DNA of 64,000 nucleotides. Source: an uncultured Gemmatimonadales bacterium (GTDB taxonomy: Bacteria > Gemmatimonadota > Gemmatimonadetes > Gemmatimonadales > GWC2-71-9). Numbering within the stretch: position 1 is the first letter of the stretch; each line of letters starts with the position of its first letter. The DNA is taken from positions 15,518 through 79,517 of the forward strand of contig CAWCVB010000015.1 of NCBI GenBank assembly GCA_963798915.1. Direction: 5' to 3'. The position numbers and the translations under genes were made by a program. Shown one piece after another: positions 6,479 to 11,993 of the stretch. Below the pieces are notes generated by a model. The model did no database searches. It worked only from the letters and a program-made list of their open reading frames with translations, and was not told where the DNA came from.

Positions 6479-7470
6479 GCCACGCGCTGGACCGCCAGCA
6501 AGTCGCGATCCAGGTAGGCGTGGAAGATCTGCTCGGCCTCGGACATGCATTCCACCTGGAAGAGGCGCTGGCGCAGCTCACTCGCCGCATGCAGTCCGCG
6601 AGTGTACCAGCCAAGATGCTTCCGGAACTCGATGACGGTCTTCCGTGAATCACCCTGCAGCCGAAGTGCGAGCTGCGCATGGCGGAGTGCCACCCGGAAC
6701 CGCTCGCGCGCATCCGGCGCTGGTGGGGCTGCCTTGCCGGCCAGCAAGGCCTGCGCATCGCGGAATATCCACGGATTGCCGAAGGCGCCCCGGCCCACCA
6801 TGACCCCCGCACATCCCGTATGCTGCCGCATCCGCACTACATCCTCTGCCGTCTGGATATCACCATTCCCGATCACGGGAATGTCGAGCGCCTCGACGAC
6901 GCGTGCGATCTCGTCCCAGTCAGCGTGACCCGAGAACATCTGGGTTCGCGTCCTCGCATGGAGCGTGAACGCGCGCGCGCCGGCATCCTGCATCAGCAGC
7001 GCGATCTCAACCGGCGTACGCGCCTCCTCATTCCAGCCGGAGCGGGTCTTGACGGTAACCGGAAGGTGCGTCGCGCCGATGACCGCCCGGATAATCCGAC
7101 GCACCAGGCCGAGGTCCTTGAGGCATCCGGATCCGCCATTGCGCCTGACGACTTTCTTGACGGGGCAGCCGAAATTGATGTCGATGAATTCTGGCGCGTA
7201 GTGCTCCGTTATGAGCGCAGCAGCCTCGGCCATGGCATCAGGATCGGCACCATAGATCTGGATGCCGATGGGGCGCTCACACGCTTCGAATTCGGCGCCT
7301 TCCAGCGTGCTGCGGATGCGGCGGCGGATGGCCTCCGAGGACAGGAACTCCGACAGCACCACGTCCGCCCCCATTTCACGGCAGATCTGCCGGAAGGGTG
7401 CCTCGGAGACGCCCGCCATGGGCGCCAGTGAGAGCGCGAACGGATGCGCGGACGGATAGGGCAAGTGCAT
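6475..7470 (-). CDS. dusB: tRNA-dihydrouridine synthase DusB
   Basis: LAPMAGVS, IDINFGCPVKKV, PVTVKTRSGW, LHARTRTQMFSG, IGNGDI, VMVGRGAFGNPWIF. Confidence 0.93.
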   Translation of the reverse strand: MHLPYPSAHPFALSLAPMAGVSEAPFRQICREMGADVVLSEFLSSEAIRRRIRSTLEGAEFEACERPIGIQIYGADPDAMAEAAALITEHYAPEFIDINFGCPVKKVVRRNGGSGCLKDLGLVRRIIRAVIGATHLPVTVKTRSGWNEEARTPVEIALLMQDAGARAFTLHARTRTQMFSGHADWDEIARVVEALDIPVIGNGDIQTAEDVVRMRQHTGCAGVMVGRGAFGNPWIFRDAQALLAGKAAPPAPDARERFRVALRHAQLALRLQGDSRKTVIEFRKHLGWYTRGLHAASELRQRLFQVECMSEAEQIFHAYLDRDLLAVQRVA

Positions 7471-7621
7471 GGGAGGAAAATAGGTTTGCGCTGGGGCGAC
7501 GGCAATCCGCCGTCGCAGCCCAGTCCGTGCCACCCGCACTGGCGAGATCCGGAACCACGGCGCAGATTGACAATGTCGGACCTCCATTCAAATCCGCTCA
7601 CATCACCTGCAGGAGCCCCTC

Positions 7622-8590
7622 ATGCGCACCGCCCGTGCAGCAGCTGCGATACTGGCGTTCTCCGCCCTCGCCACCGCGTGCGATCAGACCAACCCGACGG
7701 CTGTGGGCCCGGCGTTCAACAAGGCGCCCGTCGCCCCCTTGCCCCATGGCGACGGTGCCGTGAGCCCTGTGCTCGACAGTATCAATCACGCACTGGTCGC
7801 CCGGGACCTGAACGTACAGATAGCGCGCGCCGAATTCGTCCTGGCAAACCGGCCTGGGGATGCGGCCACTGGCCAGGTGATATTTGCCAATGATCGAGCG
7901 AAGCGCCTTACCTCAGGGTGGGTTGGTGGCGATGGCCGGCGTCTCGCGGATGGAGACCGGATCACCTGGCTGGACCTCGATCCCTTCATGGCGGCAAACG
8001 GAGCTGGTGGCCCTGTAGACGCGGGCCCCGCCGTCGATGCTGCCTTCGCGACTTGGGGGAAGCAGACCTGCACCACGCTCGATGTTGCGAAGCGGGCCTG
8101 GGATGGGACTACCAACCCCAGTGCCATCCTGGACCTCGGTATCCCCTCCGACCCCTTCGCTGCGGACATTTCCGTGCTGGGGTATCTGCCCGGGTCGCTG
8201 TTTGACCTTGTCCTCGGCGACGGCGCCGCGGAAAACGTCCTGGGCGTCACTTTCACCTTCGTCTTCGTTGATGGGGATGGACACCCCACCGACATCAATC
8301 ATGACGGTCATGACGACACGGCACTGAAAGAGATCTGGTTCAACAATGAATTCATCTGGACCACGACGGGCCTGGGCGGTGCCATCGACGCGGAGACAGT
8401 CGCCCTGCATGAGAGCGGCCACGCGTTCGAGCTGGGCCACTTCGGAAGGATTTTCGGCACGCTGGGCAACCTCACACTGCATGTTGCCCCCCGTGCGGTC
8501 ATGAATGCCGTCATTCTGGGTACACTTCGCAGTCCGCTCGGCACCGACAACGCCGCGTTCTGTGGCTTCTGGTCCGCATGGCCGAGGTGA
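7622..8590 (+). CDS. Lipoprotein zinc metallopeptidase (metzincin / matrixin-like)
   Basis: AGGAG RBS; lipobox LATA-C; HESGHAFELGH zinc motif; downstream Met-turn-like AVMN. Confidence 0.75.
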   Translation: MRTARAAAAILAFSALATACDQTNPTAVGPAFNKAPVAPLPHGDGAVSPVLDSINHALVARDLNVQIARAEFVLANRPGDAATGQVIFANDRAKRLTSGWVGGDGRRLADGDRITWLDLDPFMAANGAGGPVDAGPAVDAAFATWGKQTCTTLDVAKRAWDGTTNPSAILDLGIPSDPFAADISVLGYLPGSLFDLVLGDGAAENVLGVTFTFVFVDGDGHPTDINHDGHDDTALKEIWFNNEFIWTTTGLGGAIDAETVALHESGHAFELGHFGRIFGTLGNLTLHVAPRAVMNAVILGTLRSPLGTDNAAFCGFWSAWPR

Positions 8591-8774
8591 GCTGAACGTC
8601 GGCCTCGCGCGCTCAAAGCCTCTCTGCGATGCTGCAGGGTGCATCGTGCAACCTGCATGCGGATCGGCGGCATTAGCATCAGAATGGAGAAGCGCGCAGG
8701 GATGGAGGCGATGTGACTCGCGTGATGGGCACGAGGGAGAGCGCCTGATGTCCCGGGCGGAGCGGGAGGCCAGC

Positions 8775-10217
8775 ATGGCCAGGCGTTCGGGCAGTGCGGA
8801 GCAGTTCGACGCCATCGTGATTGGCGCGGGCGAAGCCGGCACGGTGGTGGCAAGCCAAGCCGTGCAAGCGGACAAGCGCGTGGCGATGATATTTCTCCCG
8901 CCATACGGCAGTACCTGCCTGAACGCCGGCTGCGTACCGAGCAAGTTTCTCATCCATCGCGCGCGGATCGCTCATCAGGTGCGCACAGCTCGCCGCTTTC
9001 ATATCGAAACGGAGGGCCCTCGCGTCCACTTTGGCCTCATCGCGGAGGAAAAGGACGCGATGGTCGAGGCTCACCGCCACGAAAGCTGGGCGGCGGCCCG
9101 GTCGGACCCTCGGCTGGCGCTCGTAGAAGGCTCGGCGCGGTTTTATTCCGCGCGAGAAGTGCGGGTGAACAATCGTCGCTTGTCGGCCAATGACATCTTC
9201 ATCGCCACCGGTTTGCGCCCGCATGTCCCCGATCTGCCGGGCCTCGTAAGGGATCGCGCGCTCACTAGCGACACTGTGATGATGCTCACGGCGATTCCGG
9301 AGCATCTCATCGTCATTGGAGGTGGTTACGTGGCCTGCGAACTGGGCCAGACATTCCACCGCTTCGGTTCTCGAGTCACCATCATCCAGAGCGGCGCACA
9401 CCTCCTGGCGCACGAAGAGCCCGACGTGAGCCGGGTGCTGGCCAAGGCGCTGCGCGAGGAGGGGCTGCAGCTGCTGCTCGGGCACAAGGCGACCCGGGTG
9501 GAGCATTCCCCATCGGCGGTTCGGGTATGGACTCAACCAGCCGAAGGCGCGGAGGTGGTGTGTGAAGGTTCTCATCTGCTTCTGGCCACCGGGCGACGGC
9601 CCAATACCGGCCAACTCGGGCTGGATGCAGCCGGTGTTGTGACCGACCAGGAAGGGTACGTGAAAGTAGGTGAGGACATGGCAACCTCGGTGCCCGGCAT
9701 CTGGGGCATCGGTGATGTAAATGGCCTGCAACCCTTTACCCGCGTGTGCCAGGAGGAGGCCAAGGTCTCGTATGCAAATGCGTTCGAGGGTGCGAGCCAG
9801 CGGCTGCATCGTGGTTGGCTGGGTCATGCCGTCTTCACCGACCCGGAGATCGGCAGTGTCGGCCTGACCGAGGCCGCTGCGCGGGCTGAGGGCCATGACG
9901 TAGCGGTGGGACTGGTGACGTTCGACCAGGTGGCGAGGGCAAGGCTGACAGGAGAGACCACCGGGATGATCAAGTACGTGGTGGAGCGGCAAACCCATCA
10001 AGTGCTTGGATGCCACGTGATCGGGCCCCATGCCGCCGAGCTGGTGTATGCTGCTATCCCCACGATGCGGCAGAATGGCCGGCTCGAAGAAGTCGCCGAG
10101 GCGGTGGGCATCTTCCCGACCCTTCAGGAGGGACTGGAAGGCGCCGCTCGGGGGCTTATGAAAAAGTTGGGCGCGAGCGATCGCCGCGGTCCGCCCGCGA
10201 TGAATCCAGTTCTTTGA
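8775..10217 (+). CDS. Class-I pyridine nucleotide-disulfide oxidoreductase (MerA/LpdA-like; substrate unknown)
   Basis: GGAGG RBS; IVIGAGEAG, redox CLNAGC, IGGGYVACE, ATGRRPNT, GIGDV, FTDPEIGSVG; C-terminal FPTLQE. Confidence 0.9.
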   Translation: MARRSGSAEQFDAIVIGAGEAGTVVASQAVQADKRVAMIFLPPYGSTCLNAGCVPSKFLIHRARIAHQVRTARRFHIETEGPRVHFGLIAEEKDAMVEAHRHESWAAARSDPRLALVEGSARFYSAREVRVNNRRLSANDIFIATGLRPHVPDLPGLVRDRALTSDTVMMLTAIPEHLIVIGGGYVACELGQTFHRFGSRVTIIQSGAHLLAHEEPDVSRVLAKALREEGLQLLLGHKATRVEHSPSAVRVWTQPAEGAEVVCEGSHLLLATGRRPNTGQLGLDAAGVVTDQEGYVKVGEDMATSVPGIWGIGDVNGLQPFTRVCQEEAKVSYANAFEGASQRLHRGWLGHAVFTDPEIGSVGLTEAAARAEGHDVAVGLVTFDQVARARLTGETTGMIKYVVERQTHQVLGCHVIGPHAAELVYAAIPTMRQNGRLEEVAEAVGIFPTLQEGLEGAARGLMKKLGASDRRGPPAMNPVL

Positions 10218-10237
10218 CCGCGGAAAAGGACACTATC

Positions 10238-10354
10238 ATGGCGAAGGATTTCAAATGCCAGATGTGCGGGGCGGAGTTTGACACCCGCGAGCAGCTGGAC
10301 GAGCACAATCGAACCAAGCACGCCGGAGCAGGGAGTCCGGCGACGAAAAGCTGA
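10238..10354 (+). CDS. 38-aa classical C2H2 zinc-finger microprotein
   Basis: AAAGGA RBS 7 nt upstream; MAKDFKCQMCGAEFDTREQLDEHNRTKHAGAGSPATKS matches F-x-C-x2-C-x3-F-x5-L-x2-H-x4-H. Confidence 0.8.
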   Translation: MAKDFKCQMCGAEFDTREQLDEHNRTKHAGAGSPATKS

Positions 10355-10440
10355 AGGCTGAAGGCTGAAGGCTGAAGGCTGAAGGCTGAAGCGAACGTAC
10401 CGCTTCGAGCTTTCAGCCTTCAGCTTTTGGCTTTCAGCCC
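10350..10440. repeat. (GCTGAAG)x6 followed by ~4 degenerate inverted copies; hairpin between convergent genes
   Basis: Six perfect units at 10350-10391; GCTTTCA GCCTTCA GCTTTTG GCTTTCA at 10409-10436. Confidence 0.9.
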
Positions 10441-11993
10441 TACTCCCATTCAATCGTCGCCGGCGGTTTCGAGCTCACGTCGTACACGACTCGGTTGACG
10501 CCATCCACTTCATTGGCGATCCGATTGGAAATGTGCGCCAGCACATCCGGTGGAAACGGAAACCAGTCCGCCGTCATGCCGTCCCGGCTGGTGACGGCAC
10601 GGAGCGCGATGACCTGGTCGTAGCTCCGTTCGTCCCCCTGCACCCCGACCGAGCGGATGGGCAGCAGCACCGCGAAGGCCTGCCAGATGTCGTCGTAGAG
10701 GCCGGCAGCGCGGATTTCCTCGATGTAGATCGCATCGGCCCGCCGAAGGGTGTCGAGTGCAGACGCGTTGACATCTCCCAGGATCCTGATGGCGAGGCCA
10801 GGCCCGGGAAAGGGATGCCGTCCCACCATCTCCTCCGGCAAGCCCAGCTCACGCCCGACCTGACGAACCTCATCCTTGAACAGTTCGCGGAGCGGCTCGA
10901 TCAGCTTGAACGGCAACCGCTCCGGCAATCCGCCCACGTTGTGGTGGCTCTTGATCGTGACGGACGGACCACCCATGGGCGAGACCGATTCGATCACGTC
11001 CGGGTAGAGCGTGCCCTGCACCAGGTAGGCCACCTCACCATCCACGGAACGTGCTTCCGCCGCGAACACGTCGATGAAGGTGTGACCGATACGACGTCGC
11101 TTGAGCTCCGGGTCGGTCACATCGGCAAGCTGGGCCAGGAACTGCTGGCTGGCATCCACCACCCGGAGATCGATGCCAAGATTACTGCGGAACGCCTGCT
11201 CCACCTGCTCGCGCTCGTGCAGCCGGAGCAGGCCATGGTCCACAAAGATGCAGGTCAGCCGGTCGCCAACAGCGCGATGCACCAGTGCTGCCGCCACCGC
11301 GCTGTCCACCCCACCCGACAGACCGCAGATCACCCGCTGGTCGGGCCCAACCAGCTCGGCGATGCGGGCCACTTCGCGATCGACAAAATGTCCCGGCGTC
11401 CAGTCGGGCGTGCATCCGCAGATATCGAAGATGAAAGCCGAGAGGATCTCGCCTCCCCGCGGCGTGTGGGCCACCTCGGGATGGAATTGGACACCGAACA
11501 GTGGCCGTGATTCGTGCTCGATGGCGGCAATCGGAGTGTTGGGACTGCGGGCCACCACCCGATAGCCGCGCGGGGCCGCATCGACGTGATCACCATGGCT
11601 CATCCAGACCGGTGTTTCCTCGCCAGCAGCAAAGCTCCGCAACAGCCGTCCACCATCTGTGCGAATCATCGCTCGGCCGTATTCCCGGCGCGAGGCGCGC
11701 ACCACAGTCCCACCGCTCAACTGCGCCAGCAGCTGCATCCCATAACAGACGCCGAGAATCGGGATGCCCAGCTCCAGCAGGGCCGGATCGGCCGTCGGGA
11801 CGTTGTCGCCGTAGACCGAGTTGGGCCCGCCGGACAGAATGATCCCCCGCGGCTGCCAGTCCCGAATCCAGTCAATCGCCCGGCTGGGTGGGTGAATTTC
11901 GCAGTAGACGTGGGCCTCGCGCACGCGCCGGGCGATGAGCTGCGTGTATTGCGAGCCGAAGTCGATGATCAGGATGCCTGGCTCATGTGCCAT
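10440..11993 (-). CDS. guaA: GMP synthase (glutamine-hydrolysing)
   Basis: [51 protein letters not shown]. Confidence 0.98.

Follow-up and report, generated by a model that had tools for sequence, protein, structure and literature searches.

A predicted two-part reductase system pairing a C2H2 zinc-finger microprotein with a MerA-like flavoprotein

The window analysed here, a stretch of 64,000 nucleotides from an uncultured Gemmatimonadales bacterium (contig CAWCVB010000015.1), encodes a 38-aa C2H2 zinc-finger microprotein directly after a flavoprotein disulfide reductase. Comparative sequence analysis indicates that the two constitute a real two-part reductase system, a MerA-like variant lying outside MerA. 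A literature search covering titles and the beginnings of abstracts found no description of a finger–reductase pair; within the openly searchable literature the system is previously undescribed. The preferred reading, to which a probability of about 40% is assigned, is that the finger CxxC serves as an external cysteine pair handing a soft metal, e.g., Hg(II), to the reductase. With similar reserve, the pair may exemplify a two-part flavoprotein reductase class, where a C2H2 finger acts as a detachable cysteine pair that shuttles metal ions or electrons. We infer physical contact between finger and enzyme, with the finger thiols as the carriers of metal or electrons.

The finger gene (10238–10354, plus strand) begins 20 nt past the stop codon of the reductase (10215–10217) and is preceded by a Shine–Dalgarno-like AAGGA (10226–10230, plus strand) located 7 nt 5' of its ATG. 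Its translation follows the pattern F5-x-C7-x2-C10-x3-F14-x5-L20-x2-H23-x4-H28 (codons 5–28, 10250–10321, plus strand); the ORF, ribosome-binding site, 20 bp spacing and full C2H2 consensus described in the first-pass annotation can all be seen in the sequence. A six-frame scan of the 3.3 Mb genome yielded one match to the strict C2H2 motif and 42 loose matches. The Pfam profile zf-C2H2 (PF00096) gave 22.7 bits (E 1.3e-4) for the 38-aa protein, missing the gathering cut-off of 25.2, and PF00096 is carried by double-finger homologues. Comparison of the 24-codon finger core with seven homologous genes revealed 47, 45 and 100 mismatches at codon positions 1, 2 and 3, respectively, a pattern pointing to selection at the protein level. 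As far as sequence comparison goes, the finger is confirmed as a real protein-coding gene conserved as a protein. It had been supposed that gene callers would miss it, yet the protein is catalogued in a public protein collection and many of its homologues are annotated as "uncharacterized C2H2 Zn-finger protein". AlphaFold2 modelling predicted a hairpin and a helix (mean pLDDT 76); the best Foldseek matches of this model were classical C2H2 fingers (7mc3 and 2drp, rmsd 0.8–0.9 Å over 27–28 residues), and none of the Foldseek matches reached E ≤ 0.001. In a search against 1.84 billion representative sequences, the best 150 matches were all long multi-finger proteins, and the ESM Atlas relatives form unnamed clusters of 32–57 aa, some with zf-C2H2, carrying no function.

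Promoter and U-rich terminator searches gave no matches at 7300–10600. Between the finger gene and the convergent guaA lies a GCTGAAG heptamer repeat with an imperfect inverse copy (10350–10439, unstranded), predicted to form a hairpin of ~40 bp (z −10.5). GCTGAAG arrays of 3–11 copies occur at 15 further dispersed, intergenic sites of the same genome, often with an imperfect inverse on the 3' side giving a long hairpin; the repeat is genome-wide and unspecific to the finger–reductase module. Among congeners, guaA adjoins dusB or a matrixin-like remnant without an insert in 3/3 informative cases (the fourth contig stops at guaA), which suggests a joint gain (or loss) of reductase and finger. 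The upstream matrixin-like gene (7622–8590) encodes a secreted-looking protein of 322 aa that matches matrixin weakly (E 0.096), and two congeners have its 3' end at the corresponding position; as this remnant is still present in congeners without the pair, the gene was rejected as a part of the module. Stop codon read-through or selenocysteine insertion at the reductase TGA was also discarded, the finger being in frame at one locus and out of frame in the window and in L151.

The reductase gene (8748–10217, plus strand) encodes 489 aa, and an alternative start at 8775 (480 aa) has a stronger Shine–Dalgarno match and agrees better with the N-termini of homologues. Profile scores, homologues and trees assign the protein to a group of flavoprotein disulfide reductases referred to here as the FPT clade, defined by the best 119 of 4719 homologues at E ≤ 1e-50 (identity 55–65%). 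The redox-active C57-x4-C62 (8916–8933, plus strand) is invariant in the clade; across the 119 aligned proteins R71, T331, R332, E336, E337, R355, H360 and E461 are invariant as well. The FPTLQE motif (10113–10130, plus strand) places Phe456 at the position of the catalytic His of GR, E3 and RclA, occupied in MerA by Tyr (bacteria) or Phe (archaea). Phe replaces this His in 117/119 listed homologues, one having His and one a frameshift, and the HxxxxE dyad thus keeps its His in 1/119 listed proteins and its Glu461 in all. Neither the window reductase nor any of the 119 listed homologues has a terminal Cys-Cys. The position of MerA Tyr264, which is Tyr in the MerA rows of the alignment, is Trp114 in the window reductase and variable across the clade, and the position of archaeal MerA Glu317, the partner of the Phe, is Thr. 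Cys197 was dropped as a clade marker, as it is common in outgroups.

Among the 25 best NCBIfam families listed, the window reductase missed every cut-off; the top match was PRK06370.1-4 (392 bits vs. a cut-off of 629), and TIGR02053 (MerA) gave 372.9 for this protein and 384–428 for four homologues, against a cut-off of 454.45. The best solved relative of the clade profile is MerA 5x1y (E 5.5e-115). In trees, the FPT clade forms a long-stemmed single group (support 100) apart from MerA (support 96), and the AU test does not reject a sister relation of the two (p = 0.24). The initial description of the enzyme as MerA-like therefore stands as to resemblance and falls as to membership, the TIGR02053 cut-off being missed and the tree group separate; by these measures the clade appears distinct, uncharacterised and outside MerA. 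No reductase orthologue of >39% identity turned up among 60 related genomes, and a survey with the clade profile, scoring 3–10 candidates per genome, found the reductase in 2/401 genomes of the window's phylum and in 5/251, 2/201 and 2/151 genomes of three other samples. No clade member was found in 838 plasmid records, where the best identity was ~40%.

A finger module is fused to the reductase or adjacent to it in 23/23 clade loci (13 fused and 10 with a separate gene within ~60 nt), spanning at least four phyla, vs. 0/25 MerA loci and 1/160 loci of other reductases, where the single match is an unrelated zinc ribbon. The clade loci were deduplicated by hand and the 160 control loci were not, and L113 was left out, as its sequence ends before the reductase C-terminus. 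The finger profile was built from clade-linked proteins, which makes the 23/23 count partly circular; direct reading of the motif agrees with it. Two further clade loci, found finger-first, are paired too, and 11/44 unfused listed reductases lie on a contig identical in size to that of a finger homologue (mean of 0.17 under a jittered null; 0/75 for fused ones). Three of the ten separate fingers are damaged, by an in-frame stop at codon 3 (L043), a frameshift (L109) or an internal deletion (L151). One locus, L039 (genome G948), comes from unpublished data and contributes 1/23 loci, 1/12 internal starts and 1/5 Chloroflexota genomes searched for MerA and MerB; it is also part of the MerR regulator comparison, and its neighbouring MerB alone passes the NF033555 cut-off. 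Complex prediction for the reductase dimer (residues 17–489) with finger residues 1–34 and Zn gave scores of 0.23 and 0.26, the mark being 0.32, values that count neither for binding nor against it. The first-pass annotation had proposed a two-gene module and named co-occurrence of homologues with this reductase clade as its check; the proposal is upheld by the count given above, by repeated fusion and by the joint insertion.

The module is C-terminal in 75/119 listed reductases, beginning 33–58 residues past the FPT motif. These 75 fusions comprise 65 with two His-less CxxC motifs, seven with one, one with three and two with intact fingers; the seven with a single His-poor CxxC have too few ligands for a four-coordinate finger. 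A finger search of longer proteins gave 72 matches, of which ~60 were reductase fusions. In a tree of 123 proteins, the fusion state changes at least six times, with at least three changes forced by strong branches, and His-less fusion changes four times, two of them forced, which indicates that fusion of the finger to the reductase arose repeatedly. Some of the intact-finger fusions look like frameshifts; a fused group of 68 members, which retained the fusion and remodelled the module, is no artefact. Free (184) and fused (143) modules have in common the consensus F-x-C-P-A-C-G-A-[ED]-[FY]-[ED]-x-Q-E-x-L. The His pair is 97–98% conserved in free modules and is not conserved in fused ones, and both Cys are present in 143/143 fused modules, the counting itself having required CxxC. 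The model of the His-less double module was of low confidence (pLDDT 62), its motifs being 26–50 residues apart across a variable, low-confidence linker, and it gave zero fold matches. An internal ATG precedes the module in 63/75 fused proteins; a Shine–Dalgarno match of at least 5 accompanies it in 10/12 fused loci (L041 having no suitable Met), compared with 2/66 control Met codons, the loci being related. The free small protein may therefore still be made from fused genes.

A MerB-like gene or a regulator of the MerR or ArsR family is present at 13/13 fused loci and 1/10 separate-finger loci; the named fused loci are all from Chloroflexota, which makes this link close to one observation. 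The window's locus contains no metal genes, and as they are absent from 9/10 separate-finger loci too, the metal link belongs almost wholly to one related Chloroflexota group. In L292, a MerR subfamily with Cys77/120/126 drives merB-merA, the MerA scoring 587 bits (cut-off 454). A regulator of this type (51–56% identity, with the same cysteines) is transcribed divergently from the clade reductase in five loci, three of which have merB lying between the two genes. L037, L039 and L108 are arranged merR (divergent)–merB–reductase, and L035 merB–reductase, an order matching that of L292; judging from it, the pair stands in the place of merA in merR-merB operons of Chloroflexota. In the upstream MerB-like gene, Cys96, Asp99 and Cys159 are conserved and Cys117 is not; the downstream copy of L108 has all four residues. 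In L043, the reductase–finger pair directly follows merT-merT-merP-merA. Four of five Chloroflexota genomes contain MerB-like genes (1–3 copies) and one contains MerA above the cut-off; of the genomes with both clade reductase and MerB, all of them incomplete, 3/4 have no MerA above the cut-off. True MerA is nevertheless present in L043 and G453, so the clade is not simply a MerA replacement. The window's genome has no MerA above the cut-off and one MerB-like gene, split and unlinked to the pair.

MerB-like genes split by TGA into two adjacent ORFs were seen both there (L250, G000:C2 near 371800), fused behind a long N-terminal domain, and in L242. A Cys-rich YHS-domain protein is encoded directly 3' of the fused reductase in L031 (5724–6059) and L033 (5732–6130), one genome carrying this operon twice. 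Other neighbours at clade loci include glutaredoxin–TrxR, AhpC/TSA, thioredoxin and an ECF sigma factor with a zf-HC2 anti-sigma factor. The Synechocystis MerA-like enzyme is reportedly glutaredoxin-dependent.

The finger family (144 homologues, 120 of them listed) is distributed more widely than the reductase, which the earlier annotation had not foreseen. Finger matches were found in 10/401 genomes of the window's phylum, four of which have close fingers and the clade reductase nowhere, and in 40/251 genomes of one Actinomycetota class. Of 30 Actinomycetota loci found finger-first, four adjoin the clade reductase, one a true MerA and nine a DUF6789-like membrane protein; 7/9 of the latter loci have no reductase, and the five such genomes checked all lack the clade. 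The existence of fingers without the reductase suggests that the reductase needs the finger and not the reverse, and the link appears to be one-way.

Fingers were also observed on other proteins. In Thermoplasmata (P0398, P0399 and P0401), a membrane domain with two His is followed by three fingers of this family, and P0418 and P0420 are cyclophilins that combine an N-terminal signal-like segment with a single finger of the same family. Three family f9 genomes have ORFs with a C-terminal C2H2 finger (L207:1537–2070, L208:1066–1626, L210:1573–2064) that resemble ribosomal protein L21. N-terminal C2H2 fingers are also present on thioredoxin-domain and DUF3105 proteins encoded by haloarchaeal plasmids (L258:5995–6981, L259:5911–7236) within heavy-metal or mer clusters. 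Both DUF6789 genes of the window's genome (L260 and L261) adjoin an ECF sigma factor gene.

In flavoprotein disulfide reductases, electrons pass from NAD(P)H to FAD and then to a cysteine pair, and Hg displaces Zn at thiol sites. According to the preferred reading, the finger would be the dedicated cysteine-pair partner of the reductase, encoded on its own in the window and attached as a C-terminal tail in many relatives. NAD(P)H would reduce FAD and then C57–C62, as is known for the family and as the conserved motifs imply. The zinc-loaded finger would expose its CxxC, and a soft metal, e.g., Hg(II) from MerB or from proteins, would displace zinc and bind both thiols. The acidic face of the hairpin would then dock at the cleft of the dimer interface, which carries invariant basic residues, and the inner cysteines would receive the ion for reduction, a transfer carried out in cis by the terminal Cys-Cys of MerA. 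Once the module is tethered, the His ligands would be dispensable; in lineages without mer genes, including the window's genome, a relay of this kind may handle other soft metals.

Such in-trans supply of a cysteine pair fits the loss of His with CxxC kept, and the merA-slot operons. The invariable pairing, the terminal Cys-Cys missing from all 119 listed homologues, the Phe of 117/119, the repeated fusion and the mer-type neighbours also argue for transfer of a soft metal. Phe at the catalytic-His position is the archaeal MerA residue (PMC8261052, in excerpt) and is found in L259. Several features argue against this reading: Tyr264 is absent, and Thr replaces Glu317, which pairs with Phe605 in archaeal MerA (PMC4500099, in excerpt); the Tyr-to-Phe change at the catalytic-His position of GbsMerA abolished activity (PMC10587081, in excerpt). 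In addition, true MerA coexists with the clade reductase in L043 and G453, and the L043 finger contains a stop; MerB-like genes are multicopy, with the upstream copy devoid of Cys117; fingers occur in genomes without the clade reductase, and most separate-finger loci contain no metal genes. Two His-less CxxC motifs could, moreover, form one structural Cys4 site.

A possible, albeit doubtful, alternative is that the finger relays electrons as a miniature thioredoxin-like carrier, its CxxC forming a disulfide as zinc leaves and being re-reduced by the reductase; it could pass the electrons to the DUF6789-like membrane protein or to other stress proteins. This four-helix protein with two conserved His is encoded in 9/23 clade loci, compared with 1/25 MerA and 3/160 other reductase loci, and it recurs in the 9/30 finger-first loci, seven of them lacking a reductase. 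The redox genes beside the pair, the archaeal proteins in which a membrane domain of similar appearance bears three such fingers, and the haloarchaeal plasmid fingers on a thioredoxin-domain protein adjoining dsbB (weak matches, E ~1e-3) point the same way. On the other hand, 117/119 listed homologues have lost the His-Glu pair's His, on which dithiol–disulfide exchange depends in glutathione reductase (PMC4500099, in excerpt). The membrane gene is also absent from 14/23 clade loci, and the two DUF6789 genes of the window's genome are unlinked to the pair. The DUF6789-like profile, seeded from clade loci, recovered 9/9 locus seeds in leave-one-out searches (E ~1e-3 or better) and did not recover the archaeal finger-bearing membrane domain. 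It is unlikely, to a slightly greater degree, that the finger is a structural zinc module, i.e., an adaptor, stabiliser or zinc-dependent regulator with no Cys chemistry, where the fused CxxC pair shares one zinc. The four ligands and the hydrophobic core kept by free fingers, the exactly two CxxC of 65/75 listed fusions and the similar fingers on unrelated proteins, such as cyclophilin and, presumably, ribosomal protein L21, would suit this role; the single- and triple-CxxC fusions, the spacing and variable linker of the His-less motifs with no fold match and the coupled loss of the catalytic His, which it leaves unexplained, do not.

An explanation of low probability treats the finger as a passenger of stress islands, a zinc buffer or metal sponge making no contact with the reductase, and the fusions as neutral losses of stop codons with the finger's own start still in use. 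The internal starts (10/12 vs. 2/66) and the frameshift-like look of some intact-finger fusions are consistent with it, as are the commonness of fingers in one Actinomycetota class (40/251) and their placement in islands of metal and redox genes, once next to a true MerA. Fusion or placement within ~60 nt of the stop at every one of the 23 clade loci, in at least four phyla, and the 68-member group that kept the fusion and remodelled the module speak against it. Very improbable is a DNA-binding operon regulator comparable to eukaryotic C2H2 fingers or Ros/MucR: the fold and spacing do match those of DNA-binding fingers, but the family has no more than two fingers, is found fused to an enzyme and is acidic. 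The mean net charge is −3.0 for free and −4.0 for fused modules, with −1 for the window finger, as against +2.4 for multi-finger matches, which argues against DNA binding.

If true, the cysteine-pair reading would mean a mercuric-type reductase in split form that MerA screens overlook, and a finger turning into a dithiol tail devoid of His while an internal start still yields the free protein. Some half of the genomes that carry merB lack a recognisable merA (PMC8261052, in excerpt). Lacking the terminal Cys-Cys, the FPT clade would be discarded by the MerA screen as described in the available part of that paper and, standing in the merA slot of some operons, it is a candidate for part of the merB-without-merA gap, which would explain some of these genomes. 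The reductase would be the first concrete partner for bacterial eukaryote-type C2H2 microproteins, and the comparisons suggest a non-DNA-binding, thiol-based role for the C2H2 fold. The series from free finger through intact fusion to His-less fusion offers a ready test set.

Compared with MerA (TIGR02053; 5x1y, 1zk7 and archaeal 4ywo), the FPT system has the same CxxxxC centre (C207/C212 there, C57/C62 here), an aromatic residue instead of the catalytic His (Phe456 at the position of bacterial Tyr605 and archaeal Phe605), an extra cysteine pair at or past the C-terminus and, in Chloroflexota, the merR-merB context. Of bacterial MerA with Phe605, none had been assayed for activity according to the accessible text of PMC8261052. 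Unlike MerA, the clade has no terminal Cys-Cys, NmerA domain or conserved Tyr264 and forms a separate long-stemmed group (373 vs. the cut-off of 454), and the extra cysteines reside in a zinc-finger module, often encoded by a separate gene. GbsMerA, RclA/Har and the PRK06370 family are similar to the clade in fold, inner cysteine pair and lack of a terminal CC, and GbsMerA reduces Hg(II) without the latter (PMC10587081, in excerpt); however, RclA keeps His-Glu and GbsMerA needs Tyr437 where the clade has Phe, and loci of these types include a finger partner in 1/160 cases (the unrelated zinc ribbon). The His-Glu reductases (GR, E3, mycothione reductase, RclA/Har) differ in the dyad His, missing in the FPT clade, and their NCBIfam cut-offs are missed.

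As to the finger, haloarchaeal C(P)XCG microproteins are also one-domain proteins with CPxCG motifs and some bind metals other than zinc, whereas they have two C(P)XCG per finger, and the available part of the source names no reductase partner (PMC11241148). Ros/MucR are likewise bacterial proteins with a Cys2His2 site; their different spacing and larger size, pointed out at the outset, agree with the excerpt of PMC9779718, where Ros is a DNA-binding protein of 142 aa with a 9-residue spacer in a 58-residue domain, compared with a spacer of 12 in the 38-aa finger. The classical C2H2 finger (PF00096) is closest, with the same 12-residue spacer, C-x2-C-x12-H-x3-5-H arrangement, F/F/L core and predicted β-β-α fold, and it is set apart from the modules described here in that the latter are bacterial, single or double, of acidic and not basic charge, linked to an enzyme and, in most fusions, stripped of their His ligands.
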